Source: Candidatus Poriferisodalis sp. (GTDB taxonomy: Bacteria > Actinomycetota > Acidimicrobiia > Acidimicrobiales > Poriferisodalaceae). From it: a DNA stretch of 64,000 nt. Positions 10,630 through 34,922 of this stretch are shown here, one piece after another. The notes under the pieces are model-generated. The model was not told the origin of the DNA, ran no database searches, and was given only the letters and a program-made list of their open reading frames with translations. The position numbers and the translations under genes are program-made. Position 1 is the stretch's first letter; the number at the start of each line of letters is the position of its first letter. The stretch is from the NCBI GenBank assembly GCA_965221195.1, contig OZ244864.1, forward strand, positions 2,006,219-2,070,218. The letters run 5' to 3'.

Positions 10630-12193
10630 ATGGTGACGGGTGAACTGAAACGGCAGATCGATGCGGTGTGGAACGACTTCTGGTCGGGCGGCATCTCGAA
10701 CCCACTGGAGGTGATGGAGCAGCTCACCTATCTGCTGTTTGTCAAAGCGCTCGACGAGCAGCAGACCTTGGCTCACAATAAGGCGAACCGCACGGGCCAG
10801 CCGATCCCTGCCGACGACGACATCTTCCCCGACGGCGGGCAGTTCCGGCCCGAGGGCCGTGCTGATGCCCGTCCGTACAGCGATCTGCGCTGGTCACAGT
10901 TCAAGCACCTTCCGGCTGCTGAAATGTTTGATGTCGTTGAGAACTACGTGTTCCCCTTCTTGCAGGCACGGGCCGCCAAGAGCACCCACGCGCAGCACAT
11001 GCGCGACGCCCGGCTGACGATCCCCACGGCGACGCTCCTGCAGAAGGCTGTCGATGGGCTAGATGCAGTCGAGATGGCCGACCGCGACACCAAAGGCGAC
11101 GTGTATGAGTACATGCTCTCCAAGATCGCCACCGCCGGCCAAAACGGGCAGTTCCGCACACCGCGGCACATCATTGAACTGATGGTTGAGATGACCGCCC
11201 CCCAGCCAGACGACACCATCTGCGACCCCGCCAGCGGCACCTGCGGGTTCTTGGTGGGCGCCGGGGAGTACATCCGGCGTGAGCATCCGAGCGTGCTCAC
11301 CGATCCCAAGGGGTCGATGCATTTTCACAACAAGATGTTCTCGGGCTACGACTTTGACAACACGATGCTGCGCATCGGATCGATGAATATGCAACTCCAC
11401 GGCGTGCAGAACCCGCGTATCAGCTACCGAGATTCGTTGGCCGAAAGCCACGCCGATGACGCTGAGGCCTACAGTCTGATTCTCGCCAACCCGCCGTTCG
11501 CTGGCTCGCTCGACTATGAGGGCACCGCCAAAGACCTCTTGGCGGTTGCTCGCACCAAAAAGACCGAACTGTTGTTTATTGCGCTGTTTTTGCGGCTGCT
11601 CAAGCCCGGCGGACGAGCGGCGGTGATCGTGCCCGACGGGGTGCTGTTTGGTTCAACTAAGGCGCACAAAGAACTGCGCCGTATCTTGGTAGAAGACCAC
11701 AAGCTCGACGGCATCGTTTCGTTGCCAGGTGGTGTATTTAAGCCGTACGCCGGGGTTTCCACAGCGATCTTGCTGTTTACCAAAACTAACTCTGGTGGCA
11801 CCGACCTCGTCTGGTTTTACGACCTTCAGGCTGATGGTTACAGCCTTGACGACAAGCGCACTCCCCTGCTGGACGACGACAAGCTGGGCACAAAGGTTGA
11901 GTTGATTGCGGGGGGGGGGGGGGGGGCATTCCAAGAACAACCTGCCCGATGCACTCGCTCGTTGGAAGCAGCGTGACGGATCTGAGTTAGAGCGCTCTCG
12001 CACCGATCAATCGTTCTGCGTTCCCAAGGTTGACATAGCCGCCAACGATTACGACCTCAGCATCAACCGCTACAAGGAGATCGTCTACGACGAAATCGAG
12101 TACGAACCGCCGACTGTGATCCTCGACGAGCTTGCCGATCTCGAACGGGAGATCCTGGCAGGTATCGACGATCTAAAGGCAACCTTAGGATGA
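10630..12193 (+). CDS. hsdM: type I R-M methyltransferase subunit HsdM, reading frame broken at a G17 tract
   Basis: HsdM N-terminal domain (IDAVWNDFWSGGISNPLEVMEQLTYLLFVKAL), FRTPRHI and the NPPFAG catalytic motif. The frame from 10630 stops at 11976. The conserved HsdM C-terminus (NNLPDALARWKQRD...NDYDLSINRYKE) continues in the next frame to 12193. Removing one G restores a single ORF. Confidence 0.85.
11910..11926. repeat. homopolymer G17 inside hsdM
   Basis: Counted directly: the g at 11910 plus 16 further g up to 11926. Confidence 0.95.
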
Positions 12194-13155
12194 GGGGACA
12201 ATTGAGACTCGTCATCGATCGAGCGTTCGATGAACTCTGGCAGCCACTTACGAATCACGATGACTGCCCTGCGAGTGTTTTTGGTGAGGTTTTTACTGGC
12301 TTGCGCCCATTCCTTCGTGAACCTGAACCGGAGTTCGTAAAAGAAGAAGACAACGGCCCAATTCGCAACAAAGCCACCAACTTCGACGATCAAGCCTTAT
12401 GTGCAATGAGTGACCCGAAGACCGCCGAAATTCTGCTGAAAAACTTATCAAAGGAGAGTTTCATATCGGAAAATGACACCCGCCGAGCCGCCAGTAGCAC
12501 TTGGGAGATTCTTGTCGATATCGCAACCGAAGATCTTGCGAAAGAATACGTGAGCCTTCTTAAGAATTTTATTGAACGTTATAACTTGCGCTACTATGTT
12601 GGCGAGAATGCCCAACTCTGGATTTCTTTTTCTGGACTTGCTACATCGCTGTTCGGCCAACTCCGCTTTATAGCGCAGGGTCATCCTCATCTTCTACAAC
12701 AGCTTAACGAATTCGAACAGACATTAGCTGAATGCCTGAATCAACCTTCAGAGAATCGAATCAAGACCTCGATCCAAAAACAAACGAACCTGCTGGAAGC
12801 CTTCGGTTCACAAAACGGCCTCATTTCTGGCAACACGCTCGGGGCTATGCTCGATCAGGCAAATAACTGGCCGCACACCAGTCTTTGCGATGCCGCGAAA
12901 AATTTATACAAGTTTGCGTCTGATTATCCAGGTATTCGTCACGGAGGTAACTTTGACTCATCTAATCGCGCACTGGACCTGCGTGATCTCAGCAGCGTCA
13001 CGCTTTCACTCGTCGGACTCGCCGCGTACATGGCTGACGGTTTTGAGGAGCAAGTTGCCTCCGCCATACAGGGTGACCTTCTTCCAACCGTCACTCTTAG
13101 CAGTGTTGCAACGCCTTCGCCTCCAACATGTAGAGACAAGACGAACCAACTATGA
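12190..13155 (+). CDS. hypothetical protein embedded between hsdM and hsdS (low GC)
   Basis: 321-aa ORF. ATGA overlaps occur at both ends (12190-12193 with the hsdM stop, 13152-13155 with the hsdS start). It is visibly AT-richer than its neighbours, and I recognise no family. Confidence 0.7.
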   Translation: MRGQLRLVIDRAFDELWQPLTNHDDCPASVFGEVFTGLRPFLREPEPEFVKEEDNGPIRNKATNFDDQALCAMSDPKTAEILLKNLSKESFISENDTRRAASSTWEILVDIATEDLAKEYVSLLKNFIERYNLRYYVGENAQLWISFSGLATSLFGQLRFIAQGHPHLLQQLNEFEQTLAECLNQPSENRIKTSIQKQTNLLEAFGSQNGLISGNTLGAMLDQANNWPHTSLCDAAKNLYKFASDYPGIRHGGNFDSSNRALDLRDLSSVTLSLVGLAAYMADGFEEQVASAIQGDLLPTVTLSSVATPSPPTCRDKTNQL

Positions 13156-14339
13156 CAGGATTTTCTGGGTTCGAAGAAATGACAGATGACGTGAAGTGGC
13201 CCATAGTGCCCGTTCGAGATGTAGCCACCGCAGAAAGGAATGCAGTTTCAGCGGATCAGGTCCACGGAGATGAGTTGTACGTTGGATTGGAGAATGTGAC
13301 TAGTGACGGAGTCTTCGAAAACGTGGTAGTTGCAAGCAAGGCAAACTTGAAGAGTAACAAATTCGCGTTTACGGAGGATCATGTGCTCTACGGCAAGCTA
13401 CGCCCGTACCTCGCCAAAATAGCCGCACCTGACTTCGCTGGCATCTGCAGCACCGACATACTCCCTATTAGGCCAAGTACCAGACTTGACCGCCGCTACC
13501 TGCTGTATTTTCTGCGAACACCGATGATGGTTGCCCGTGCGGCGAGCAATGCCGTGGGGATAAATCTTCCCCGACTGAACCCGAAGACATTGGAGTCATT
13601 CGAGATTCCGTTGCCGCCGATTGGGGAGCAGAGGCGGATTGCGGCGATATTGGATGCGGCTGATGCTCTCCGAGCGAAGCGTCGTCAAACTCTCGCCAAG
13701 CTCGACGATCTGACGCAATCAATCTTCCACGAACAGTTCATTCGTGCGAACGGGTGGCCGGGTTCGTTGGACACGACACTTGGTGAGATAGCGGAGATTG
13801 TATCAGGCTCGACACCCAAAACCGGTGTCGAGCGTTACTGGAACGGTGATGTCTGGTGGGCGACACCGAAGGACCTAAGTGAAATCACGAGTCCGTATAT
13901 CGATGCTACTGAGCGCACGCTGTCTGAGGCTGGCCTCCAGAGCTGCTCTGCCTCCGTCTTGCCTGCCCATTCCGTCCTCTTGAGTTCGCGGGCCCCAATC
14001 GGATACGTAGCTATCAATACTACCCCCATGGCCACCAACCAAGGATTCAAGAATTTCGTCCTTGATTCGAAGTGTGTCGATCCTAGGTTTCTCTATTCTT
14101 GGTTGCGTTTCCACCGTCCACAGCTGCAGGCAATGGGAAGTGGTGCGACCTTCAAAGAGATATCCAAGAGAACCGTCTCTTCGGTACCGATTCGCTTGCC
14201 GACAATCGAGAAACAACGTGAATTTGGCGAGGTGTTTGACAAGGCCGAGGCGCTGCGAATCACAGCGGAACATGAATTGACGATGCATGACACGTTGTTT
14301 GCTTCACTACAGCAGCGGGCGTTTCGGGGGGAACTGTGA
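13152..14339 (+). CDS. hsdS: type I R-M specificity subunit HsdS
   Basis: 395 aa with two target-recognition halves separated by a conserved helix (LPPIGEQRRIAAILDAADALRAKRRQTLAKLDDLTQSIF). The C-terminal helix is LPTIEKQREFGEVFDKAEALR. Confidence 0.85.
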   Translation: MTGFSGFEEMTDDVKWPIVPVRDVATAERNAVSADQVHGDELYVGLENVTSDGVFENVVVASKANLKSNKFAFTEDHVLYGKLRPYLAKIAAPDFAGICSTDILPIRPSTRLDRRYLLYFLRTPMMVARAASNAVGINLPRLNPKTLESFEIPLPPIGEQRRIAAILDAADALRAKRRQTLAKLDDLTQSIFHEQFIRANGWPGSLDTTLGEIAEIVSGSTPKTGVERYWNGDVWWATPKDLSEITSPYIDATERTLSEAGLQSCSASVLPAHSVLLSSRAPIGYVAINTTPMATNQGFKNFVLDSKCVDPRFLYSWLRFHRPQLQAMGSGATFKEISKRTVSSVPIRLPTIEKQREFGEVFDKAEALRITAEHELTMHDTLFASLQQRAFRGEL

Positions 14340-17300
14340 GCGGGTCGCAGTTCTCGTTTCTCGAAGCTGAGTTTCAGCCGCAGTTCGGTGCAGCGGCTCG
14401 GGCTGAGGGCTACACCCTGTCCGACCCCGGCGCAGCGGTGATCTATGCACGCAAATGCCTGGAGTCAGCCGTCACATGGATGTACCAGCACGACCCGTCG
14501 CTGCCTGCGCCGTACGATGACACGCTCGGTGCACGGCTGAACAACCCAGCTTTCCAAGCACTCGAAGATGGTCGCATTTTTGAGGCGGCACGCAAGGTTC
14601 AGCGAGCCGGCAACCGTGCAGCACACGAATCGAAAGCGCCGTCGAAGCTCGAAGCGGTCGAGGTCGTCTCGGCGCTGTTCGGGTTCTGTCTGTGGTTCGC
14701 ATTCACCTACGGGCGCGCATCGAAGCCTGATCCGTCGCAGCGGTTCAACCCGCACCTGCTGCTCGACGCGGGTGAAGCCGAGCGGGCCTCGCTGCGCCAG
14801 CGCCAAGAACTCGAGCAACGTCTTGAGCGCGAGTCTGCCGAGCTTGCCACTGCTCAGCAGCGACTGGCCGAATCGACACGCAGCGCTGAAGAACTACACA
14901 CCGAGCTGGCGAATCTGCGGGCAGAGGTGGCCGCTGCCAAGAAGCAGGCAGCCGAGACCGTCCCGCCCGACGCGTTCGACTGGTCTGAAGCCGAAACTCG
15001 CAAGTTCAAGATCGATGCGCTGCTGGCCGAAGCCGGTTGGACCGATCTCGCCGAAGGCCGCGACACCGAATACGAAGTGCATGGCATGCCGTCGGAGTCG
15101 GGCGTTGGCTACGTCGACTATGTGCTGTGGGGTGCCGATGGCAAACCGCTCGCCGTGATAGAGGCCAAGAAAGCCTTAGCCGATCCGAAGATCGGCACCC
15201 AACAAGCCAAGCTGTATGCCGATTGTTTAGAAACCGAGACCGGCCAACGGCCAGTCATCTACGCCAGCAACGGTTATGAGCATTGGCTGTGGGACGACAC
15301 CCAGTATCCACCTCGCCAAGTGCAAGGGTTCTGCACCCGCGACGAACTGGCTTTGCTCATTGCGCGGCGTACGGCTCGCATGTCGCTGGCGTCGCTGGAC
15401 GTAGACGGGCAGATCGTTGACCGTCACTATCAGCGGCGAGCGATCAGCGCCATCGCCGAGCACTTCGAGCACGCCAACCAGCGCAAGGCACTGCTGGTGA
15501 TGGCCACCGGCGCAGGCAAAACCCGCACGGTGATTGCTTTGACGGATCTCTTGATGCGAGCCGGATGGGTGAAGCGGGTGCTGTTTTTGGCGGATCGCAC
15601 AGCGCTCGTACACCAAGCCGCACACGCCTTCAAGACGCACCTACCCAATGCGGCACCGGTGAACTTGGTGACCGAACCCAACGTAGACGGACGAGTGTAT
15701 GTATCTACCTATCAGACGATGGTCGGCAAGATCGACGAGTATCGGCGCAACGGCATTCGCCGGTTCGGTGTGGGGTATTTCGACTTGGTGGTTATCGATG
15801 AAGCGCACCGGTCGGTGTATCGCAAATACCGGGGCATCTTCGACTATTTCGACTCGTTGCTGGTGGGCCTCACTGCGACCCCCAAAGACGAGGTCGACAA
15901 GAACACCTACGACTTGTTTGATCTTGAGACTGGCGTGCCCACCGACGCGTATTCACTTGAAGATGCCATTGGTGACGACTATTTGGTGCCGCCTCGGGGC
16001 GTGTCGGTTGAACTCAAGTTCGTGCGTGAAGGCATCAGATACGACGAACTCTCCGATGACGAGAAAGACACTTGGGACGAACTCGACTGGGGCGAAGATG
16101 ATGAGGGCGATCCCCTAGCGCCGCCAGAGGCCGTTGATGCCGCCGAACTCAACAAATGGTTGTTCAACCGCGACACCGTCGACCGGGTGCTCGAATACCT
16201 GATGGTCGAGGGCATTAAGGTAGCTGGTGGCGACCGGCTCGCCAAGACGATCATTTTCGCCAAAAATCAAAAGCACGCCGAGTTCATAAAAGAACGCTTC
16301 GATGCCAACTATCCAGCCCTCGATGCTGGCAATTTCGCGCGGGTTATCACCCATCAGACGAGCTACGCCCAGAGCCTGATCGACGATTTTTCCAACAAAA
16401 CCAGGTCGCCGCATATCGCTATCAGCGTTGACATGCTCGACACCGGCATAGATGTGCCCGAGGTCGCCAACTTGGTGTTTTTCAAGCCGGTGCATTCCAA
16501 GACCAAGTTCTGGCAAATGTTGGGCCGCGGCACCCGACTGTGCGCCGACTTGTTCGGCCCCGGTGAGCGCAAGACTCACTTCAACGTGCTTGACTTCTGC
16601 GGGAACCTCGAGCATTTCAACCAGCCACTGGCGCCAGCAAAGACATCGAGCGGACGTTCGCTCAGCGAGATTTTGTTCTCGACCCGTCTGGAATTGTTGA
16701 GCACACTCGACGCGCTGGCGGGCTTCGGCGATGAGCGAGTGGAGGTTGCGGCGACGCTGCAACAGGCCGTGGCGTCGATGAACCCCGACAACTTCTTAGT
16801 GCGCCCGCACTTGGAGCTAGTTGAGCGGTTCAGTGCGCCAGAAGCGTGGGAAACAGTATCGCTGGCGGACTTGGCCGAACTCAACGAGCGGGTGGCCAGC
16901 CTTGCTGACCAGCTCAACGCCGACCACGAAGACGCCAAATGCTTCGACGTGGTGATGCTGAATGCGCAGTTGGGTCTGCTGCGAAGCGAGCCCAAGCCGT
17001 TTGAGCGACAGCGGCAGCGAGTCATGCGCGTGGCATCCGCCTTGGCCGACTTGGGCACATCCATTCCCGTGGTGGCTCAGCAACAAGAACTGATCGCAGA
17101 CATACAGACCGACGAGTGGTGGACCGATGTCACCTATCCGATGCTCGAAGATGCCCGCAAGCGATTGCGGAACCTCACTCAGCTCATCGTTCGTGCCGAC
17201 AAAAAGGTTCTCTACAGCGACTTCGCCGATGAGTTCGGCGGTGCCAGTGTGATTGACCTGCCCGGCGGTGGCAAGCCGGGCGGCAGTCACGATGTTGCCG

Positions 17301-17785
17301 ATGACAGCAGTGATGAGTTCGCACAGTTCCGCCGCAAGGCGCAGCATTTCTTGAAGGAGAACCTTGCCGAAGGTGTCGTAGCCAAAGTTCGCAGCGGCGA
17401 GCCGCTCACCCAGCACGACATGGATGAACTCCAGCGAGTGCTGGTGGCCGCCGGCATCGGCGACGACTCAACGTTCGCCAAGGCATCACGGCGGGCTGGC
17501 AGCTTTGGGTTGTTTGTCCGCTCGCTGGTGGGGCTCGACCGAGCCGCTGCCAAGCGCGCCTTTGCCAAGTTCCTCAACGACAAGCGCTACAGCGTCAACC
17601 AGATCCGCTTCGTGGAGCTGGTGATCGATTACCTCACCGAACATGGCACCGTAGAGCAACACCGCGTCTACGAATCGCCGTTCATCAGCGTCGCCCCACA
17701 AGGACCCGACGCCATCTTCGTATCCGACGACCTCGAAGAGTTCTTCAAAATCGTCGACCAATTCCACAAAACCGCCGCTGTTTAG
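14336..17785 (+). CDS. hsdR: type I restriction enzyme R subunit HsdR with N-terminal DUF4145/HEPN-like domain and coiled coil
   Basis: 1149 aa. The N-terminus has AARKVQRAGNRAAHE (DUF4145-like), followed by a coiled coil. The nuclease core is GYVDYVLWGADGKPLAVIEAKK. Helicase motifs are MATGAGKT, VIDEAH and GLTATP. GTGA overlap with hsdS. Confidence 0.9.
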   Translation: MSGSQFSFLEAEFQPQFGAAARAEGYTLSDPGAAVIYARKCLESAVTWMYQHDPSLPAPYDDTLGARLNNPAFQALEDGRIFEAARKVQRAGNRAAHESKAPSKLEAVEVVSALFGFCLWFAFTYGRASKPDPSQRFNPHLLLDAGEAERASLRQRQELEQRLERESAELATAQQRLAESTRSAEELHTELANLRAEVAAAKKQAAETVPPDAFDWSEAETRKFKIDALLAEAGWTDLAEGRDTEYEVHGMPSESGVGYVDYVLWGADGKPLAVIEAKKALADPKIGTQQAKLYADCLETETGQRPVIYASNGYEHWLWDDTQYPPRQVQGFCTRDELALLIARRTARMSLASLDVDGQIVDRHYQRRAISAIAEHFEHANQRKALLVMATGAGKTRTVIALTDLLMRAGWVKRVLFLADRTALVHQAAHAFKTHLPNAAPVNLVTEPNVDGRVYVSTYQTMVGKIDEYRRNGIRRFGVGYFDLVVIDEAHRSVYRKYRGIFDYFDSLLVGLTATPKDEVDKNTYDLFDLETGVPTDAYSLEDAIGDDYLVPPRGVSVELKFVREGIRYDELSDDEKDTWDELDWGEDDEGDPLAPPEAVDAAELNKWLFNRDTVDRVLEYLMVEGIKVAGGDRLAKTIIFAKNQKHAEFIKERFDANYPALDAGNFARVITHQTSYAQSLIDDFSNKTRSPHIAISVDMLDTGIDVPEVANLVFFKPVHSKTKFWQMLGRGTRLCADLFGPGERKTHFNVLDFCGNLEHFNQPLAPAKTSSGRSLSEILFSTRLELLSTLDALAGFGDERVEVAATLQQAVASMNPDNFLVRPHLELVERFSAPEAWETVSLADLAELNERVASLADQLNADHEDAKCFDVVMLNAQLGLLRSEPKPFERQRQRVMRVASALADLGTSIPVVAQQQELIADIQTDEWWTDVTYPMLEDARKRLRNLTQLIVRADKKVLYSDFADEFGGASVIDLPGGGKPGGSHDVADDSSDEFAQFRRKAQHFLKENLAEGVVAKVRSGEPLTQHDMDELQRVLVAAGIGDDSTFAKASRRAGSFGLFVRSLVGLDRAAAKRAFAKFLNDKRYSVNQIRFVELVIDYLTEHGTVEQHRVYESPFISVAPQGPDAIFVSDDLEEFFKIVDQFHKTAAV

Positions 17786-18267: not shown

Positions 18268-19014
18268 ATGGCCGATAAGTCAGCCATCGAGTGGACCGAA
18301 GCGACATGGAACCCGACCACGGGCTGCGATCGCACCTCGCCGGGCTGTGACAACTGCTATGCGCTCGCTCTGTCGAAGCGGTTGAAGGCGATGGGTTCGC
18401 CCAAGTACCAGAACGACGGCGACCTAGCGACGAGCGGGCCGGGCTTCAGGCTGACCCTCCATCCTTCGTCGCTTGACGTGCCGAAGCGATGGAATGCTCC
18501 CCGCCTTGTCTTTGTGAACTCAATGAGCGACCTTTTTCACGAGGACGTGCCTGTCGAGTTCATCGCGCAGGTCTTCGCCGTGATCCGCCAGACACCTCAG
18601 CACACCTACCAAGTGCTCACCAAGCGGGCGCAGCGCTTGAGCCGAATCGCCGGCGATCTGGACTGGCCGTCGAATCTGTGGATGGGCGTGAGCGTGGAGA
18701 CTCGCCGATACGCGTTCCGCGTCAATCATTTGCGCAAAGTGCCCGCTGCTGTCAGATTCGTCAGTGCCGAGCCGTTGCTCGGCCCGCTGGGCGACCTGAA
18801 TCTCGACGGTATCCACTGGGTGATTGCGGGCGGCGAGTCCGGCATCAACGCACGGCCCATGGAACTTGACTGGGCCACAGAACTCCGCGACACCTGCACC
18901 TCCGCCGGCGTGTCGTTCTTCTTCAAACAGTGGGGCGGTAGGACACCCAAGGCCGGTGGGCGCGAACTCGAAGGTGAGTACTGGGACGAGGTGCCGCTCA
19001 GGTTGGCGAGCTAG
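18268..19014 (+). CDS. DUF5131 (phage Gp37/Gp68-like) three-Cys-motif protein
   Basis: MADKSAIEWTEATWNPTTGCDRTSPGCDNCYA is the characteristic N-terminus of this family (recalled). 248 aa. Confidence 0.8.
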   Translation: MADKSAIEWTEATWNPTTGCDRTSPGCDNCYALALSKRLKAMGSPKYQNDGDLATSGPGFRLTLHPSSLDVPKRWNAPRLVFVNSMSDLFHEDVPVEFIAQVFAVIRQTPQHTYQVLTKRAQRLSRIAGDLDWPSNLWMGVSVETRRYAFRVNHLRKVPAAVRFVSAEPLLGPLGDLNLDGIHWVIAGGESGINARPMELDWATELRDTCTSAGVSFFFKQWGGRTPKAGGRELEGEYWDEVPLRLAS

Positions 19015-24561: not shown

Positions 24562-25176
24562 ATGCGTTGGCACAAGCTCTCGTCCGCACTTGTTGTAGCG
24601 GCGGTTGTGGTGGCTGGCTGCGGAGATGCCGATCCCGACCTGACAGCGGCGACAGTTCCCGCTGGCGCGCCTGCTACTTCGGTTCACATTCACGAAGACG
24701 GCGAAGTTTATGTTCACACAGCCGACGAGAAGTCAGACCACGAAGACCACGAAGGCCACGACACAGATCACGACGGCCACACCGATCACGAGATGGGTGC
24801 CATGTCTGCTGGCACTCATGAGGGCCACGACCACAGCGCGACTCGCGAAGCAGCCGACGGGCTGCCGGTGCCTGCCATCTCAGTAGAGGTCCTTGCCGAT
24901 CCGATGAGCGGATGGAACCTGCGCACGGTGGTAGAGAATTTCCGTCTTGCGCCTGAGAATGTTTCCACTGACCACGTTGACGGCGAGGGGCACATGCATC
25001 TCTACATCGATGGAGTGAAGATCAGCCGTCTCTACGGAATGTGGTACCACTTGGGTCAGCTTGAACCTGGAGAGCGCGAGATCCGCGTTGAGTTGTCGGC
25101 CAACGACCACGCAGCCATGACCTACGAGGGCAACATCATCGACGACACGGTCATCGTCACCGTGCCCGCCTCTTGA
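24562..25176 (+). CDS. His-rich secreted lipoprotein, probable metal-binding
   Basis: ATG at 24562 after ACGGAGG. Signal peptide with lipobox VVAGC. His/Asp-rich stretch HEDGEVYVHTADEKSDHEDHEGHDTDHDGHTDHE. The C-terminal domain contains GEGHMHLYIDG. Confidence 0.7.
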   Translation: MRWHKLSSALVVAAVVVAGCGDADPDLTAATVPAGAPATSVHIHEDGEVYVHTADEKSDHEDHEGHDTDHDGHTDHEMGAMSAGTHEGHDHSATREAADGLPVPAISVEVLADPMSGWNLRTVVENFRLAPENVSTDHVDGEGHMHLYIDGVKISRLYGMWYHLGQLEPGEREIRVELSANDHAAMTYEGNIIDDTVIVTVPAS

Positions 25177-25208
25177 CCCAACCCGTACTAGGTGCCACAG
25201 CACCGCCG

Positions 25209-25218
25209 CCCCCCCCCC
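25209..25218. repeat. homopolymer C10 upstream of the type ISP-like gene
   Basis: Counted directly. It lies 27 nt upstream of the ATG at 25245. Confidence 0.9.
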
Positions 25219-25354
25219 ACACACCCAAAACCCAGAAATCTCAGATGAACGAAACAGCCCCACAACAGTTAGAGACCGCCGCTGGCGAGGTCACTGACGA
25301 AACCGCTGGCGGGGTCACGGTTATTGCGTCTGCGACGCGCGGCATGCGTCGTGA

Positions 25355-28300
25355 AGACATCGACTTGGCATCGTTGAATCTCCCCTTCGCCGACCCCCCA
25401 GATTTAGCCCCCCCCCCCCCCCCAGAGACTTAGCTTCTGAACCAGACGTCGAGAGCCTCGTCACGGTCGGTGAGGTCATTGAGCGCATTCGAACCACCAG
25501 CCGTGACGAACACGAAAAGGGGCGATGGTTTGAGGAACTTGTCAAGATCGTCTTCCTCAACAGCCCTACCTACGAGATTGAAGAGATTGAGCACTGGGGG
25601 CAATGGCGTGACCGCCAGCCACTAACAGGGCTCAGCCGCAAAGACACCGGCATCGATCTTGTCGCGCTCCACCGCAACGGCAGCCGTATCGCTATCCAGT
25701 GCAAGTGCTATGCGCCCACCCAGCGAATCGCCAAGCCTGACATTGATTCGTTTTTGAGCCAATCTCAGGTAACCGACGCGGCTGATCGGCCTGTCTTCGC
25801 GATGCGGTGGATCGTCACAACGTCGCCGTGGACTGATAACGCGGCGGCTCAGGTTGACAGCTTGGACGTAGGAGTTCGCCGGATCGACTTCTGTCAGCAT
25901 GAGTTTGAGAAGATCAGCGAGAAGCTGCAACGGCGGCCGGTGCGTGCGCCTTGGCCGCGTCAAAGCGAAGCCATCAACAAGGTCACCGAGGGGCTGTCGC
26001 ACCACGACCGCGGTCGGATGATCATGGCCTGCGGTACTGGTAAGACGTTCACTGCGTTGCGTATCGCGGAGAGCGTGGTGCCCGACGGCGGACGAATCGC
26101 GTTCGTGGCACCGAGCATCGCATTGGTGGCACAAGCACGCCGCGAGTGGCTGATGCATTCGCGGCGTCCGTTGGAGTGCGTCGTTGTGTGTTCTGATGAA
26201 TCCGCTGGTGGTCGCGCTGAGAGTGCCACAGCGATGCGCATCTGCGAGCTGGAATGTCCGGTGGACAGGTCGCCGGAACGGCTTGGGGCGATGCTTGACC
26301 CCGCCCGCGGCACCGACCTAACACGCGTGGTGTTTTGCACGTACCAGTCGCTACAGCATCTCCACGACGCTCAAAACTGCCATGCAGCCGGAGCGTTCGA
26401 TCTGGTGCTCTGCGACGAAGCGCACCGCACTACCGGGGCTGTGTCGGACGCAACCGGGGCTGCTCGAGAAAGCGGCTTTCAGCGTGTGCATGACAACGAC
26501 TGGCTGCGAGCCCGCAAGAGGCTGTACATGACGGCCACGCCCCGCATCTACACCACCTCTTCTAAGGCAGCGCTGGCAGGGCGCGGTATCGCAACCGTCG
26601 ACATGAGTGACATGCACATCTACGGCCCTGAGCTTGAGCGTTTGTCATTCAAGGAGGCAGTCGAGGGTGACCTGCTGGCCGATTATCGGGTGATTGTGCT
26701 GGGTGTCCATGAGGGAGCGATTCCCGCGGGTATGCGGCAGCGTCTCATTGACTTGGGCGACAAAACCGCCGAGTCGCAGGCCGCGAAGTCGCCATCCTCT
26801 CAGACGGGCTCGAAGCCGTTGGTGGTCACCATCGAAGACTTACAGCGACTGCTAGGCACCACGCTCGCTATCAACGGCATGACATCGGGTAGCGACTTGG
26901 AGGTCCCTGAGCGTTTAGATCGCATCATCGCGTTTGCTAACTCCATCGCGAGATCAAAGTTTTATGCCAAAGGTCTCACCGATTCGCAGTTGCGTGCTCT
27001 CATCACTCGCCGCCGACGCGCAGGCGGCGAAACCGAAGGCGCTACCAAAGTCGAGGCAACTCATCTAGACGGAACAGCGCCTGCCTTTGAACGCAGCGAG
27101 GAGCTACGCAAACTGGAACGAACCCGCACAGACCAGTGCTCGCGCGTGATCTGTAACGCGAAGCTGCTCACCGAAGGCGTGGATGTGCCGTCGCTGGACG
27201 CGGTGGTGTTTATGGAACCGCGTGACAGCCAAGTTGACATCGTGCAGGCCGTCGGGCGGGTTATGCGACGCGCGGAGGGCAAGAAGCTCGGCTACATCGT
27301 GATTCCGGTGCCGGTGCCGCCGGGCGCGGACTTGGCAACTGCACTCGAAACGGGCGGCAGCGGTTACGAATCGGTCGGTCAGGTGCTAAGAGCGTTGCAA
27401 GCTCACGACGGTCGCCTCGCTGAGACTCCTGCCCGTTTCGTCAAGGTTGGCGAGATCAAACCCCCCAAACCCACCCCCAACGGCGACACGGGCGGCGACA
27501 GCGACGTAGTACCCATCGACGATGGCGGGGAGGCCGCTCAGCTCAAGTTAGATCTGCACAAAGCGGGCGCTGCTATCTACGCGCATGTCGTTGCGGCGTC
27601 GGGCTTGGGGTCGGCGGGCAAGCTCGTAGCCGACGATCTCGGCATGGCTGTGGCGTTTGCTGGTGCCCGTTTCGCTGAAGGCAACCTCGCAGCGCCGCTA
27701 GCAGCAGCGCTCGGCGGCCTGACCGTTGACGACACCAACCAGAATGACATCTGCAAAGTCGCCGCGCTGGTGCTCATCAATGCCTGCCTGTTGCACCGGC
27801 GCTTGCGTGAGGTGCCTCGTTTTGGCGACATTGCCGACTTGGCCAGCGTGACTGGTGCTGGCGACCCAGCGGAGATCTTGGCTGCGGGTTGGGAACAGAT
27901 TCTTGACCATGATTATGAGCCGGTGTTTGGACCGGCGCTGTCGGTGCTGCGACAACTCCCACCGAGGCCGTTCGCTACCGAAGCGCTGCGGAGCTTGGCT
28001 GAGTGCGCTAACCGCACCGCCGACTCGCTCAGCGAGATGGGTTACGACCACGCAGGTCCGCTGTATCACCGCATTTTGCCCAACGCAGCCGCCTACGGCG
28101 CCTTTTACACCAAGAACCTGTCGGCGCTCATGCTGGCACGCCTGGCCATCAACCACGACTTCGCCGATTGGTCAGACCCAGAGGCGATTGCTGCTTTGAA
28201 GGTCATGGATCCTGCTTGCGGCACCGGCACGCTGCTGATGGCAGCGCTGCGAGTGCTCAAAGAACGCGTCCGTGAAGCCAGACACCAAACATCAGATACT

Positions 28301-29599
28301 GATAACACCAGCACGGCCTCCGACACCAGCACAGCCTCCGACTCCGGCGTCGTTGACCCTCACGAGACCGCCCTTCACAAGACAATCGTTGAGAACGTGC
28401 TGCACGGACTCGACATCAACTTGCCTGCCATTCAGTTCGCGGCCTCCAACTTCACCTTGGGTGCCCCCACTGTTGATTACCGCAAGATGAACCTGTTCAC
28501 GCTCCGTCACGGCCCACAACCCGACGGTTCGATGATGGCCGGAACGCTGGAAGTGCTCGGTTTCGCCGACACCGACGCGTCGCTTGCGAACCTGGTTCGC
28601 CACGCCAACGCTGCGTCCGTCGGCACGCAGTTGACAGATTCTGGAGCCGAGTTCCCGATCAGCGACATCGACTTGGTCATTATGAACCCTCCTTTCACCA
28701 ACAACGTGAAGAAGGGCTCACAGTTCTCACCGTCCGACAAGAAAGCCATGCAACAACACGAACTCGGGCTGCGCGACTCGCTGTTGCAAACCGATCCGAT
28801 TGCTGGCGCGACCATCGACGCAAACAGCATCCAGACCTACTTCACCCCAATAGTCGACCGCATGCTGAACACGCACAACGGGATATTGGCACTGGTATTG
28901 CCGACGACATTGTTCACCGGTTCATCAGCAACATTGCAACGTCGCTTCATCGCCAGCAAGTTCCACATCGAAACCATCATCACGTCACACGATCCCAAGC
29001 GCATCAACTTCTCTGAAAACACCGGCATTCACGAATGCCTGCTCGTCGCTCGCCGTCGTGGCAGCCAACCAAACACAGCAGCTAGCGATCCGCCTACACA
29101 GTTCGTGTCGTTAGCCAAAATGCCCTCAACGCCTGACGAAGCTCTCGCCGCAGCCGACGCAATTGCAAGTGGCGAACTCGGTGAGTGGGGCAACGTCACG
29201 CTGTGGCCATCTGAGCGTGTGCGCGACGGCGACTGGTCGCCGGTGCAGTGGTACGACGGCAGTCTCGCCGAAATCGCACTGTCGCTCGAAGCTGGCAACT
29301 TTGCGCCGTCCGCACTTGACGGCTCGCTGGCTGGGAAAACAGGCCTGAGTGGGCTGACTGGGTTGTCTAGCGGGGGGGGGGCAGATTCGGCCCTTCAGGC
29401 CAAGCAGTCCGAGGGGCCTTTGCGCTCTGCGGGCACACCACCGGATCGAACCCGACGGCCGAGCCGTACGCGGAGCATTCCAACAAATGAACGCGTAGAT
29501 GAAACCGCCAATGAACTCAAGCCAGCCCGCCAACGCCATGCCATCGGACCGGGGGGGCAACGCATTCAAGATGCCTTCGAGAAACGAATCACCCAGTGA
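25355..29599 (+). CDS. type ISP-like single-polypeptide R-M enzyme (Mrr-like nuclease + SF2 DEAH helicase + N6-adenine methyltransferase); no in-frame start before 25754
   Basis: The frame is open from 25355. Nuclease core: EKGRWFEELV...GIDLVALHRNGSRIAIQCK. Helicase motifs: ACGTGKT, LVLCDEAH, MTATPR. Methylase motifs: DPACGTGTLL and DLVIMNPPFT. The first ATG/GTG/TTG in this frame is at 25754, inside the nuclease domain. Confidence 0.8.
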   Translation, partial: RHRLGIVESPLRRPPRFSPPPPPRDLASEPDVESLVTVGEVIERIRTTSRDEHEKGRWFEELVKIVFLNSPTYEIEEIEHWGQWRDRQPLTGLSRKDTGIDLVALHRNGSRIAIQCKCYAPTQRIAKPDIDSFLSQSQVTDAADRPVFAMRWIVTTSPWTDNAAAQVDSLDVGVRRIDFCQHEFEKISEKLQRRPVRAPWPRQSEAINKVTEGLSHHDRGRMIMACGTGKTFTALRIAESVVPDGGRIAFVAPSIALVAQARREWLMHSRRPLECVVVCSDESAGGRAESATAMRICELECPVDRSPERLGAMLDPARGTDLTRVVFCTYQSLQHLHDAQNCHAAGAFDLVLCDEAHRTTGAVSDATGAARESGFQRVHDNDWLRARKRLYMTATPRIYTTSSKAALAGRGIATVDMSDMHIYGPELERLSFKEAVEGDLLADYRVIVLGVHEGAIPAGMRQRLIDLGDKTAESQAAKSPSSQTGSKPLVVTIEDLQRLLGTTLAINGMTSGSDLEVPERLDRIIAFANSIARSKFYAKGLTDSQLRALITRRRRAGGETEGATKVEATHLDGTAPAFERSEELRKLERTRTDQCSRVICNAKLLTEGVDVPSLDAVVFMEPRDSQVDIVQAVGRVMRRAEGKKLGYIVIPVPVPPGADLATALETGGSGYESVGQVLRALQAHDGRLAETPARFVKVGEIKPPKPTPNGDTGGDSDVVPIDDGGEAAQLKLDLHKAGAAIYAHVVAASGLGSAGKLVADDLGMAVAFAGARFAEGNLAAPLAAALGGLTVDDTNQNDICKVAALVLINACLLHRRLREVPRFGDIADLASVTGAGDPAEILAAGWEQILDHDYEPVFGPALSVLRQLPPRPFATEALRSLAECANRTADSLSEMGYDHAGPLYHRILPNAAAYGAFYTKNLSALMLARLAINHDFADWSDPEAIAALKVMDPACGTGTLLMAALRVLKERVREARHQTSDTDNTSTASDTSTASDSGVVDPHETALHKTIVENVLHGLDINLPAIQFAASNFTLGAPTVDYRKMNLFTLRHGPQPDGSMMAGTLEVLGFADTDASLANLVRHANAASVGTQLTDSGAEFPISDIDLVIMNPPFTNNVKKGSQFSPSDKKAMQQHELGLRDSLLQTDPIAGATIDANSIQTYFTPIVDRMLNTHNGILALVLPTTLFTGSSATLQRRFIASKFHIETIITSHDPKRINFSENTGIHECLLVARRRGSQPNTAASDPPTQFVSLAKMPSTPDEALAAADAIASGELGEWGNVTLWPSERVRDGDWSPVQWYDGSLAEIALSLEAGNFAPSALDGSLAGKTGLSGLTGLSSGGGADSALQAKQSEGPLRSAGTPPDRTRRPSRTRSIPTNERVDETANELKPARQRHAIGPGGQRIQDAFEKRITQ
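25408..25423. repeat. homopolymer C16 between the candidate start codons and the body of the type ISP-like gene
   Basis: Counted directly as 16 c. The upstream frame (ATG at 25245 or 25344) terminates at 25431-25433, and the enzyme frame is open from 25355. Confidence 0.95.
29372..29381. repeat. homopolymer G10 near the 3' end of the type ISP-like gene
   Basis: Counted directly. A G7 tract follows at 29551-29557. Confidence 0.9.
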
Positions 29600-29708
29600 G
29601 TGACTTGCCGCTATCCGCAACACATCAACTCGTACACGTCTCCGAACAGCGAGATGTAGGACCTGCCGGCCGTCGCATTCAAGACGCATTCGGGCCGGCG
29701 CTCAAACC

Positions 29709-30314
29709 ATGAACTACCACGCGTTCTGGTCGATTTCATCGAAACTGCGAAAGACGATGCGCGGCGCACCAGAACAGCGCATCGAACCGCGCCCCGGCAA
29801 AGAACGCCTAGCTGAGCGCTACTGGAACCAGCGAAGCCAACTTCTAGTGGCCAACAAGCACGACACCGTGTCAGGACGCCTCGTTGCCGTGTACAGCCGC
29901 GAACCTTCCGTCGGTTCTGGCTGGGTACCTGTATCAGTCAAAGACAGTGACGAAGCCAAGTCGCTCTGTGTCTGGTGGAATAGCACACCGGTCCGCATTT
30001 TGCTGTTGAGCCGCAGGTCCAAGAAACTCACTTATCCCTCGTGGTCGCTGGATCAACTGCGGAGCATCTCGGTGCCGTCACCCGACAATCCTGGGTGGGA
30101 TGCCCTTTTGGCAGCGTTCGAGCAGGCCTGCGACATCGAACTGCTGCCCCTAGGGGACGCAGAACACTGCCAAGGCAGACACATCATCGACACCGCCGCA
30201 GCGCGCATCTTGGGCGTGCCTGAAAGCACCATCGCTGACTGGCGCCGCCGCCTTGCCTGCGAGCCAACAATTTCCAACCGACCAGCAGAACCCGCAGCCA
30301 AACAACCACACTGA
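29709..30314 (+). CDS. 201-aa ORF, probably the displaced C-terminal part (or partner) of the type ISP-like enzyme
   Basis: Protein-like sequence (GRLVAVYSREPSVGSGWVPVSVKDSDEAKSLCVWWNSTPVRILLL...) in a different frame 110 nt after the upstream stop. No RBS is visible, and the region between is frame-scrambled. Confidence 0.55.
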   Translation: MNYHAFWSISSKLRKTMRGAPEQRIEPRPGKERLAERYWNQRSQLLVANKHDTVSGRLVAVYSREPSVGSGWVPVSVKDSDEAKSLCVWWNSTPVRILLLSRRSKKLTYPSWSLDQLRSISVPSPDNPGWDALLAAFEQACDIELLPLGDAEHCQGRHIIDTAAARILGVPESTIADWRRRLACEPTISNRPAEPAAKQPH

Positions 30315-32266: not shown

Positions 32267-33157
32267 CTACTTGGACGCTTCCGCTCGGCGCTTACGTACC
32301 TCGGGGTACGCATCCGCTGGCATGTGGGCCAAGGCCTTTTCGACGAGTCGCCGAAAGAATTCGCCCGCCGAGAGATCCTCCGGTGTCCTGTCGTGTACTA
32401 CCGCGACACTGCCGGTTGATTTAGATGGTTGTTCGTTGGCAAGGTCCGGTCCGTTTGTAGGAGCCGTTGTTGTTGTCAACTCTTCGAACAGCAGCAAGCA
32501 GGTGCAGTCGTAGACATCTGGCTCCGACCTGAGCTTGCTAAGCATGTCGATTGCGAAATCGATTTCTGCATCCGAAATATCGTTGCCTGCGACGAAAAGG
32601 AATCCCAGCGCCGACAAAGGGTGGCGACCCCGCAGGTTCTTGGCGTCGCCATAGCCCTCTTCAAATCGGTTGCGTAGATTCTTCGCATAACTGGACAGCA
32701 TTGTCTTGGTACTGATGAGCACTTCAACACCAGCCGCCCAAGAAGCAATAACAACATCACCCTGCTTGAGATAGGCGCTGCCCATGACACGGGCTTCAGC
32801 TGGAAGTGCGCTTCGGGCTCCCGGCGCGTGATAGCGGCTCTCCACCTCCGAGCGAAGTCCGCGAGTAAGTGCTTTCTCGACGAAGTGGCGGATGTCTCGT
32901 GGAAGGATCCGCGGACTCTGGCGGCGTGGCCACACATCGTCTGCGTTGAAGCCGGCTCGGCGCAGTTCCTCTGCGGCCCACACATCTGCAGCCCCTGCGA
33001 CGATGCCTGAAGCCTGCGTCGCACCGGCAGCGACACGCAGCAGCTGCTCAAGCAGGTCGAAATCGGGCATGAATTGGCCGTTAGGGTGCCATGGATTGAC
33101 GAACGGTTCCTTGGGAACGAAATCGTCGAAGCGGTCGAGCTTTTGGGGTTGTGCCAT
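32267..33157 (-). CDS. putative type II restriction endonuclease
   Basis: 296 aa, 37 nt downstream of and co-directional with an N6-adenine methylase. Possible D...E-x-K-like core (GDVVIASWAAGVEVLISTK). Family not recognised. Confidence 0.5.
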   Translation of the reverse strand: MAQPQKLDRFDDFVPKEPFVNPWHPNGQFMPDFDLLEQLLRVAAGATQASGIVAGAADVWAAEELRRAGFNADDVWPRRQSPRILPRDIRHFVEKALTRGLRSEVESRYHAPGARSALPAEARVMGSAYLKQGDVVIASWAAGVEVLISTKTMLSSYAKNLRNRFEEGYGDAKNLRGRHPLSALGFLFVAGNDISDAEIDFAIDMLSKLRSEPDVYDCTCLLLFEELTTTTAPTNGPDLANEQPSKSTGSVAVVHDRTPEDLSAGEFFRRLVEKALAHMPADAYPEVRKRRAEASK

Positions 33158-33194: not shown

Positions 33195-34922
33195 CTAGGT
33201 GCTTGGGAATGAGTTCTTGCGGGCTGAAGCAGTGCTTGAGTGTTCAGGAAGCGTCACACCGTAGATTCGTTCCGCTGCACATGTCGCCATGGAGCGGTCT
33301 CTCATTTGGAAGGCATGCCGCAGGTCGGCTTCGTCTCGCATGCTGAGTGAAGACGGGAGAGGAACCCGGATCTTGCGCAGGTATTGAGCTTGGAAGCGAT
33401 AGGTACCGCCTCGCATTTTGACGCAGTAGGCCCCGACGAGCAGGTTCGCAATGTCCGACAGCAGAAGACCCCCGAGGATTTCGAGGTCCCAAGCGTCGGA
33501 GACGATGTAATAAAGGTTGTGGTGAGGGTAATAACGTCCAACGTCGAGTACCGGATGCGCCGCAGCCTTGATGTCGGGGAGTAACAGTTTCGGCCTCTCA
33601 AGTAACCCGGGTGTCACGCGGTCAATCGTCCGGTACCAAGCGGTCGGTTTCCGGCGAGCAACATGGCGACTCCTCACACGCAATTCGTGGGTACGTAGAT
33701 GCGCAGCCAGACCAGGAAAATCTGCGAGTTCCACCAACCGTCCGTCTTGCCATGGGTTGATGAGATACTTGCCTGACCACCTCACTACTCCGCCTGCGGT
33801 GTCGCTTGCGATCAGTAGCGGCAGCAGTCGGTCGTTTTCGATGCCGGTCGGGTTGTCGGACACGTAGATGTCGTCGCATCCGGTGGCAACGCCGATGCCC
33901 ACTCGCGTCCCCGTACACGAATCTTCAAGTGGGCGAAAACGCGACTCAAGATCGGCTAGTACCTCGAGTGTGCTCGGCGCACCAGTAGGCCAGTGGGCGC
34001 TTCCTCTAGGCCAATCTCGAAGCTCAGCCGTCTCGAAGGACTCACCCGCAGGCACCTCTTGCGCATCGGAACGAAACCAAGCCTCAAGGCTGCGGCTTGC
34101 TGATTCGTCAAAAGAGTTGTCGGTTGCCACAAACCGGACGCTTCCTTGGGGGGCATTTTGAATCACGGTGATGGCTGGATACGCAGACACATCTTTCTCA
34201 AAAGCATCGGCATCATGCATCTCAATGAGTGTTTCCAGTGCATAACGCGCGCCGACGAGTTGTCGAAGACGAGTGCCGTACTGGTTGTGCATCCAACGGT
34301 CAGCGCAAATGAAACCGAGGCGGCCACCCGGCCGCAGGAGCGCAAGGCCCTTCTCGAAGAATCCAACGAACAGGTCTGCTCGTCCTCGCATCGTCGAACA
34401 TGCCTCCCTGTATGCATAGGCGACTTCATCCGGTATGTGCTCCAGCCGGACATAGGGAGGATTGCCGACGACGAAATCCACAACGAGATTGCCGCCATGG
34501 TCGGCGAGCAGGAAGTCATCCGCCGTGATCCATTGTGCAGCCAGATGTTCGGCGACATCGACTGGCTCGCCGAGTTCTAGGAGCTTGGTCACGACGGCTC
34601 TGCGTGTGTGCTCAGCATTGTGTGGCAACAGATCAAATCCCTTGACTGCGTCGCCGAGGTCGGTGAGTGTGCGACCGTGTTGTCGGCAAGATGCCGACAG
34701 TCGCTCAATGATCGGGATGAGGAACGCCCCATAGCCGCAGGAAGGTTCCACGATGGTAGCCATACCAAGGTCTTTATCGGATCGGTACCCGACCAAGTCC
34801 AGTATGAGATCGACCACCCACCGGCGCGTAAAAACCTGGCCGTGCTCGCCCTCGGGGTCAGGCATCCAAGCAAGGGTCGGCGCGGTGGTCGTCGGCGACA
34901 ACTGGGCACTTCTCATCGCCAA
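33195..34922 (-). CDS. N6-adenine DNA methyltransferase (gamma class, Eco57I/TaqI-like)
   Basis: 575 aa. SAM motif VEPSCGYGAFL, catalytic FVVGNPPYV, and a long C-terminal specificity region. Confidence 0.85.
   Translation of the reverse strand: MAMRSAQLSPTTTAPTLAWMPDPEGEHGQVFTRRWVVDLILDLVGYRSDKDLGMATIVEPSCGYGAFLIPIIERLSASCRQHGRTLTDLGDAVKGFDLLPHNAEHTRRAVVTKLLELGEPVDVAEHLAAQWITADDFLLADHGGNLVVDFVVGNPPYVRLEHIPDEVAYAYREACSTMRGRADLFVGFFEKGLALLRPGGRLGFICADRWMHNQYGTRLRQLVGARYALETLIEMHDADAFEKDVSAYPAITVIQNAPQGSVRFVATDNSFDESASRSLEAWFRSDAQEVPAGESFETAELRDWPRGSAHWPTGAPSTLEVLADLESRFRPLEDSCTGTRVGIGVATGCDDIYVSDNPTGIENDRLLPLLIASDTAGGVVRWSGKYLINPWQDGRLVELADFPGLAAHLRTHELRVRSRHVARRKPTAWYRTIDRVTPGLLERPKLLLPDIKAAAHPVLDVGRYYPHHNLYYIVSDAWDLEILGGLLLSDIANLLVGAYCVKMRGGTYRFQAQYLRKIRVPLPSSLSMRDEADLRHAFQMRDRSMATCAAERIYGVTLPEHSSTASARKNSFPST

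Follow-up and report, generated by a model that had tools for sequence, protein, structure and literature searches.

To our knowledge, phase-variable restriction-modification (R-M) systems are known almost only from cultured, host-adapted pathogens. The Helicobacter pylori Type IIG enzymes JHP1272 (Hpy99XIV) and HP1353-HP1354 carry a first homopolymer that toggles the gene between ON and OFF states and a second, close to the 3′ end, that decides whether a C-terminal target recognition domain (TRD) is added, which changes specificity; they have been described as having "two switches" (Krebes et al. 2014, PMC3936762). Here we describe a gene for a large R-M enzyme in 64,000 nucleotides (nt) of the genome of Candidatus Poriferisodalis sp. 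(contig OZ244864.1, positions 2,006,219 to 2,070,218), the whole of which we call the window. We think that this gene is probably read under the control of two hypermutable simple-sequence repeats (SSRs), SSR1 and SSR2. By analogy, the two-switch H. pylori enzymes are the closest functional precedent; the present locus would work like them and is not a member of their family.

Like the H. pylori genes, the locus encodes a single-gene R-M enzyme and has two homopolymers. The H. pylori enzymes have no helicase or translocase, however, their second frame change extends the same polypeptide, and they are not homologous to the present enzyme as whole proteins. Unlike them, the locus described here has its TRD in a separate open reading frame (ORF) connected by stop-start overlaps, a motif that occurs in three frames, and a repeat whose type varies between species. 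Its Mrr nuclease, superfamily 2 (SF2) ATPase, and coupler are homologous to those of the Type ISP enzymes LlaGI and LlaBIII (PDB 5ffj and 4xqk), and the order, methyltransferase and then TRD, is also the same. The methyltransferase-TRD module, in contrast, belongs to another lineage than that of LlaGI and LlaBIII, and the polypeptide encoded in the window does not include the TRD. Frameshifts in H. pylori Type ISP genes have been described as "not due to sequence repeats" (PMC3936762).

The locus also resembles the phase-variable Type III mod, Type I hsdM and hsdS, and Type IIG cj0031 genes ("phasevarions"), which have an SSR in the coding region, ON/OFF switching by frameshift, and strain-variable repeat length (PMC5909438, PMC7383803, PMC4889913). 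Phasevarions are found in cultured mucosal pathogens, whereas the present locus, with what appears to be the same switching logic conserved across species, comes from uncultivated sponge-associated Acidimicrobiia. Unlike in phasevarions, the tract here lies in an added leader that appears to replace an ancestral start, and the nuclease, motor, and methylase are in one polypeptide. In the C-terminal phase variation of Helicobacter canadensis, a late repeat alters the C terminus and the protein is kept (Snyder et al. 2010, PMC2823697). The alternative tails in that organism are short, and selection on them was not demonstrated (PMC2823697), whereas here each frame has a conserved motif and a hand-over to a domain ORF. 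In a limited literature search, no publication turned up that describes phase variation driven by repeats in a Type ISP enzyme or in sponge symbionts, or a repeat followed by a motif that is retained in all three frames; the literature yielded no mention of Poriferisodalis.

The poly-C tract SSR1 and the enzyme frame

The body of the enzyme gene is a frame of about 1,390 codons without a stop. It is open from position 25355, and its first ATG, GTG, or TTG is the TTG at 25754 (ORF 25754..29599), leaving 400 nt without a start codon. We rejected this TTG as a normal start; it has no Shine-Dalgarno sequence and is located 3′ of the nuclease D...QCK motif. The only usable start codons, ATG 25245 and ATG 25344, are in a leader of about 60 codons whose own frame (ORF 25173..25433) stops at a TAG (25431-25433) 8 nt 3′ of SSR1, a run of 16 C residues. 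SSR1 begins 163 nt 3′ of ATG 25245, that is, in the coding region near the 5′ end. We found that C16 gives a 62-amino-acid (aa) leader peptide, that C17 gives a single 1,451-aa ORF, which reads ...PDLAPPPPPRDLASEPDVESLVTVGEV... at the fusion, and that C14 gives 1,450 aa. The original prediction, made from the letters of the window, had claimed that the C16 run parts the two starts from the enzyme frame, that the frame has no start codon before 25754, and that 17 C residues would fuse the two frames. We verified all of the coordinates, the ORF listing confirmed the lack of start codons, and the fusion follows from the C17 allele.

We regard SSR1 as most likely a translational ON/OFF contingency switch of the classical kind that governs the entire enzyme. 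The addition or removal of one C by slipped-strand events would toggle between the full-length enzyme (C14 or C17) and the leader peptide (C16). As assembled, the window would be OFF and one insertion from ON. Such switching would be heritable and reversible, and both restriction and methylation would be lost in the OFF state. With nuclease, motor, and methylase in one protein, immunity and self-marking would switch together.

We compared the poly-C site in about 16 orthologous loci from metagenome-assembled genomes (MAGs) of sponge-symbiont Acidimicrobiia. Every close orthologue has a poly-C tract at the corresponding codon position, with lengths from C7 to C19. Among the orthologues with 70-82% identity, the lengths were 7, 8, 9, 9, 10, 11, 12, 13, 14, 14, 15, 18, and 19. 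The tract is in frame at three loci: L001 (C13), L035 (C14; its product is protein P0001), and L134 (C8; P0003). It is out of frame in the window and in L002 (C15), L003 (C19), L004 and L007 (both C9), L009 (C14), L010 (C18), L017 (C12), L036 (C11), L006, L125, and L127 (all C10), L126 (C9), and L008 (C7). We modelled eight out-of-frame alleles, that of the window and those of seven orthologues, and each was one base from being in frame. One-base repair restored approximately 1,400 to 1,540 codons in all of them except L017. The body is likewise open in the out-of-frame L002, L003, L004, L009, and L010. The short out-of-frame tracts (C7 to C11) include several from Illumina assemblies and are hard to dismiss as homopolymer miscalls.

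Both the leader and the enzyme body show coding-type conservation. Pairwise differences in the leader number 174, 60, and 489 at the first, second, and third codon positions, respectively. The leader protein is homologous to the leaders of the orthologues (MSET.PPQ...TRGMRREDIDLASLSLPFA), the block TRGMRREDIDLASLSLPFA is conserved, and the orthologue start that matches ATG 25245 (M[SN]ET.P.Q) is preceded by aGGaGGcatcg. In distant homologues (about 55% identity), the protein begins directly with M..TVGE.L.RIR, and both the leader and the tract are missing, which suggests that the leader and tract are a clade-specific add-on that replaced the ancestral start. The variation of the tract at one site with three alleles in frame, the one-base rule, and the conservation of the leader as protein all support the original prediction of a translational ON/OFF contingency locus. 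As a contrary case, that prediction had named orthologues that lack a tract and use a conserved ATG absent here as their start. We found this case only in the 55% homologues, which lack the whole leader.

The original prediction also placed a second tract, C10, in the presumptive promoter or leader. Its position, 26 nt 5′ of ATG 25245, is as predicted, and a regulatory role is not borne out: the orthologues have aGGaGGcatcgATG at this place instead of a tract, and a scan of 24900-25500 found no sigma-70-like promoter and no terminator. In L003 to L010 and L017, this region has an upstream gene ending in ...NKPTADK[SP]* and a Shine-Dalgarno sequence, GGAGG; both are missing from the window, where the C10 tract is found. 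This upstream gene is annotated as DUF5367 in L115-L116 and L128-L129.

By domain content, the locus codes for a Type ISP-like R-M enzyme that combines an Mrr nuclease and an SF2 translocase with an N6-adenine methyltransferase and a TRD. We found that the motifs of nuclease, helicase, and methyltransferase are all intact in the body. The GID...QCK residues of the nuclease are invariant across the family alignment; Walker A, DEAH, and motif VI are present in the SF2 part, as are DPACGTG and NPPF in the methyltransferase, whose domain is of the gamma class. As a single sequence, the fused protein matches LlaBIII (4.6e-89) and LlaGI (3.5e-71) over residues 74-740, and a family profile search matched these enzymes at 4.3e-134 over residues ~12-740. 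Sequence and profile searches found no link between the methyltransferase-TRD half and LlaGI or LlaBIII, giving just weak BrxX/PglX matches. We modelled this half of the close relative P0001 with AlphaFold (predicted local distance difference test [pLDDT] score of 75, and >88 over the final 360 residues), and the model can be superposed on CamA (TMt 0.66), BpuSI, BrxX/PglX, and DrdV. The MmeI_Mtase match (16 bits) is under its cut-off of 27, and the enzyme is not an MmeI-like Type IIG enzyme by homology.

The enzyme family is large, with members typically about 1,470 aa long. The nearest relatives, which are 70-82% identical, come from MAGs named Candidatus Poriferisodalis, Ca. Aldehydirespirator, Acidimicrobiales, and Acidimicrobiia; from these names and the sample labels, we infer that they are sponge symbionts. 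A metagenome scan added only L035 and L036 as close orthologues, and its other 78 loci were distant. Gene callers choose internal methionines at these loci and report "helicase-methylases" without a nuclease (P0004-P0006, P0012, P0013). The result is a set of N-terminally truncated helicase-methylases and a hypothetical 200-aa protein (P0004-P0013, P0121-P0134). Because gene callers truncate these loci, the defense repertoire of such MAGs is mis-scored.

The SSR2 junction and the detached TRD

Within the enzyme gene, between the methyltransferase and a C-terminal domain of about 200 aa, is a further tract that the original prediction did not include. This tract, SSR2, is a G10 run in the window, and we found that its site in relatives has G7 to G26, (TC)11-15, or (CAACCGAA)4-21. 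None of these repeat units (G, TC, or octamer) is a multiple of three. We considered whether a TEQPNNR peptide repeat reflects a frame-preserving 21-nt repeat and rejected this; the DNA unit is the 8-nt CAACCGAA, which shifts the frame. In the long-form relatives (P0001, L004, L009, and L012), the TRD is fused and there is no repeat at the SSR2 site. In the short-form relatives and in the window, the repeat is inserted at the methyltransferase-TRD junction. Besides the long forms, frame A of L001, L003, and L017 joins the TRD to the rest of the enzyme in one polypeptide. The window has the TRD as an ORF of its own, and none of the three SSR2 frames reads into it.

The detached ORF encodes 201 aa and matches the C terminus of P0001 with 61% identity (2.7e-80 by tblastn). 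Its AlphaFold2 model has a pLDDT of 90.5, and its best fold matches in the PDB are to the recognition regions of BpuSI, M.BseCI, and Type I HsdS (E values from 1.8e-3 to 0.2). It had no PADLOC match, and Pfam gave only sub-threshold HTH_23 and MerR_1 matches. The fold matches are weak but consistent, and together with the homology they lead us to take this ORF as a putative TRD.

The long forms carry a junction motif, (F/V)GPAG(Q/R)RI(R/Q)(E/D)(A/T)(Y/F). We found four copies of this motif in the window, A to D, and all three frames behind SSR2 are represented (Table 1). When each copy is read in its own frame, the differences between species lie overwhelmingly at third codon positions. This third-position bias argues that all three frames are under protein-level selection, which makes sense only if all three frames are read. 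Natural SSR2 alleles occur in each of them: frame C in the window, L001, L002, L006, L125, and L017; frame B in L003, L005, L126, L010, L115, and L119; and frame A in L127 and L008. Consistently with this, in one species the products of frames C, B, and A are P0007, P0008, and P0009, respectively, which are nearly identical proteins. Inside copy C, there is a run of G residues that may be a third, minor slippage site; it is G7 in the window, G6 in L006, L125, and L126, and G7 in L127, where it alters frame relations.

The frames also differ in where they end. At simple loci, the TGA that closes frame C forms an (A/G)TGA overlap with the TRD start, the stop of frame B lies no more than about 10 nt from this start, and frame A either reads directly into the TRD (L001, L003, and L017) or stops 84 nt upstream. 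The (A/G)TGA stop-start overlaps are kept in all aligned relatives. The window, L002, L006, L010, and L017 have an approximately 113-nt duplication (D1) of the module made up of motif and overlap. In the window, a mini-ORF of 38 codons carries copy D. Its GTG overlaps the TGA of the big ORF (GTGA, 29596-29599), and its TGA overlaps the ATG of the TRD ORF (ATGA, 29709-29712). In L125, an independent gene finder called ORFs of 1,325, 39, and 199 aa with 4-nt overlaps, which is the same relay. The P0001 model shows this motif well ordered (pLDDT of ~88 to 92), with a short strand at its end that immediately precedes the first TRD strand; a role as a docking element would fit this placement.

We propose that SSR2 picks one of three downstream frames, each of which would re-supply the motif GPxGxx(I/V)(R/Q)xxF. 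According to this model, the frames would differ in how or whether translation passes to the TRD. In some relatives the hand-over would be a direct fusion; otherwise, translation would be coupled by termination-reinitiation at the (A/G)TGA overlaps, in the window through the relay ORF. The junction motif would then dock the separately made TRD, and the enzyme would assemble non-covalently. We suggest, tentatively and at less than even odds, that SSR2 is a selected three-state switch in which the large subunit always ends in the docking motif and the TRD is fused, separate (RM+S), or uncoupled. If this is true, SSR2 could alter stoichiometry, the restriction-to-modification balance, or specificity, and SSR1 and SSR2 together could give up to six heritable states of one defense enzyme per symbiont population. 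SSR2, with a motif in each frame and stop-start overlaps, is a more unusual feature than SSR1. Its region would be a natural case of a coding sequence built to tolerate or exploit frameshifting.

Repeat-length variation and alternative explanations

The window has four homopolymers of at least 8 bases (G17, C10, C16, and G10), and all four are within or adjoin R-M genes. A first-order Markov model of the window predicts 0.07 C or G runs of at least 10 bases and 1.3e-5 of at least 16 bases per 64 kb. With expectations this low, we concluded that the tracts are not chance events. In nine orthologous loci of 13 to 16 kb, the only homopolymers of at least 9 bases are the SSR1 and SSR2 tracts, and the tracts are thus gene-specific to the enzyme locus.

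Repeat length is polymorphic between close strains while the flanks are conserved. The loci L006, L125, and L126 come from different samples and are 99.6-99.8% identical over 6.3 kb, with 1 to 3 mismatches. We found that they differ at SSR2, with 4, 7, and 5 units of CAACCGAA, respectively, and at SSR1, with C10, C10, and C9. A 97.7% relative has 21 octamer units at SSR2. In two other species, Illumina contigs of conspecific populations end, gap, or turn chimeric exactly at SSR1 and SSR2, and both repeats are systematic assembly breakpoints. At these repeats, L115-L124 and L130-L133 have N-gaps, ends, or joins to junk poly-C/poly-G or unrelated sequence. We left the Illumina scaffolds L115-L118, L120-L121, and L130-L133 out of the tract-length data for their gaps, junk poly-C/G, and chimeric joins.

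Distant family members (about 50-55% identity) have homopolymers elsewhere in the gene: G18 at L014:9484 and C21 at L018:8741, both out of frame, and C11 at L019:9549, in frame. Their hosts are MAGs of other lineages, namely, Ca. Azotimanducus, an alphaproteobacterium, and another Acidimicrobiia. This suggests that the enzyme family has repeatedly been brought under repeat control.

Several observations weigh against control by the two repeats. C16 in the assembly could stem from an error in the consensus or in calling the homopolymer, and one base decides the phase. SSR1 is in frame at just 3 of about 16 loci, which fits random phase (one-third expected) but would also fit frequent inactivation. 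Some copies are decaying: L017 has a further frameshift in the body (a 686-aa ORF remains after repair), and the leader of the L006 lineage is degraded by a stop. In the window, ATG 25245 has no Shine-Dalgarno sequence, unlike in the orthologues (aGGaGG), and the genomic context of the gene differs from theirs. At SSR2, all three window frames stop >100 nt 5′ of the TRD start, and coupling would need the predicted relay ORF. The TRD assignment itself draws on fold matches whose best E value is 1.8e-3. Moreover, if RNA polymerase slips on a 16-C template, the distinction between ON and OFF could be blurred.

An assembly or consensus error, with a true tract of C17 or C14 and a gene that is simply ON, is unlikely, although we give it some weight: the phase hangs on a single base, the long-read-derived relatives L002 (C15), L003 (C19), and L010 (C18) are also one base from in frame, and Illumina assemblies visibly fail at these tracts. 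Short tracts that can be called reliably are nevertheless out of frame, at C7 in L008, C9 in L004, L007, and L126, C10 in L006, L125, and L127, and C11 in L036. Even at C17 the tract would stay hypermutable, and an error of this kind bears on the current state of the gene and not on the mechanism. Long homopolymers cause RNA polymerases to slip, and symbiont genes interrupted at poly(A) tracts are known to be rescued in this way. Transcriptional slippage or ribosomal frameshifting at the poly-C tract would give some in-frame mRNA or protein at any tract length and could make SSR1 a constitutive attenuator of a toxic enzyme and not a heritable switch, an explanation that we consider somewhat less likely still. 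It would account for alleles that are mostly out of frame and have intact bodies. However, tracts of C7 to C9 should slip rarely, yet the bodies behind such out-of-frame tracts are intact, and tract length varies between near-identical strains, as DNA-level switching predicts. Slippage is compatible with DNA-level switching, and both could coexist.

The gene could also be a decaying pseudogene, with a fixed frameshift in a defense gene that is being lost and homopolymers as mutational debris. We consider this very improbable. The majority of alleles are out of frame, and the second frameshift of L017, the leader stop of the L006 lineage, and the split of the TRD from the body in the window all point toward decay. 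In contrast, the window, L002, L003, L004, L009, and L010 keep their stop-free codons with catalytic motifs intact, and in-frame alleles exist (L001, L035, and L134). Coding-type conservation is seen in the leader, the body, and each of the four copies of the junction motif. The position of the repeat at SSR2 is kept while its type turns over between G, TC, and octamer, which argues for selection on mutability. We therefore favor control of the gene by two hypermutable repeats, with SSR1 as the ON/OFF switch.

Features of the window

The enzyme gene lies in an R-M island that consists of a Type I operon, the enzyme gene, and an Eco57I-type methyltransferase. The coordinates of these and of the elements described above are given in Table 1.

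Table 1. Positions of features in the window. Differences are pairwise counts at codon positions 1/2/3 in a DNA alignment of 9 loci.
Feature	Position	Strand	Description
C10 tract	25209-25218	+	Intergenic leader/promoter region
Leader coding segment	25245-25433	+	Start ATG 25245 (alternative ATG 25344); MNETAPQQ...ATRGMRREDIDLASLNLPFADPPDLAPPPP
SSR1 (C16 homopolymer)	25408-25423	+	Poly-Pro codons; sets leader-to-body phase
Enzyme body	25355-29599	+	No start codon until TTG 25754; stop TGA 29597-29599
Mrr nuclease	~25574-25891		Residues 111-216 of the fused protein; Pfam Mrr_cat_2, 3.5e-21
ResIII	~25955-26545		Residues 238-434; Pfam, 7.2e-21
Helicase_C	~27035-27271		Residues 598-676; Pfam, 3.2e-9
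N6-adenine methyltransferase	~28088-28987		From residue 949; N6_Mtase, 1.3e-6, 28.4 bits against a cut-off of 20.4
SSR2 (G10 homopolymer)	29372-29381	+	After ...WSPVQWYDGSLAEIALSLE; between methyltransferase and C-terminal domain
Motif copy A	29386-29421	+	FGPSGQAVRGAF; phase 1; read if the G tract is +1 or -2; differences 43/28/199
Motif copy B	29448-29480	+	EPDGRAVRGAF; phase 0; read if the G tract is -1; differences 19/12/167
Motif copy C	29543-29578	+	IGPGGQRIQDAF; phase 2, the frame read at G10; differences 4/4/75
G7 run	29551-29557		Inside motif copy C
Relay mini-ORF	29596-29712	+	38 codons; VSDLPL...VGPAGRRIQDAFGPALKP; carries copy D
Motif copy D	29656-29691	+	VGPAGRRIQDAF; phase 1; within the mini-ORF; differences 36/16/212
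Detached TRD ORF (putative)	29709-30314	+	201 aa; homologous to the C-terminal domain fused in long forms
hsdM	10630-11976		Type I operon
G17 tract	11910-11926		In hsdM; frame break
ORF of unknown function	12190-13155		Type I operon
hsdS	13152-14339		Type I operon
hsdR	14336-17785		Type I operon
DUF5131 protein	18268-19014		5.4e-100; weak phage GP88 match too
296-aa ORF	32267-33157	-	No Pfam match
Third methyltransferase	33195-34922	-	Eco57I, 7.6e-20; N6_Mtase

The original prediction had noted that hsdM of the Type I operon is also broken at a homopolymer, and this holds. We found that G17 cuts hsdM short at 448 aa, whereas with G16 or G19 the frame encodes 520 aa and HsdM has a normal C terminus, ...NLPDALARWKQRD...NDYDLSINRYKE. 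The G+C content of the whole 64-kb window is 60%; it falls to 0.52 at 12001-14000, compared with about 0.60 elsewhere. This dip spans the unknown ORF and hsdS and is compatible with a recent exchange of the Type I specificity region. The gene for the DUF5131 protein lies between the Type I system and the enzyme gene. The third methyltransferase is adjoined by the 296-aa ORF, which is possibly the endonuclease of the Eco57I-type methyltransferase.

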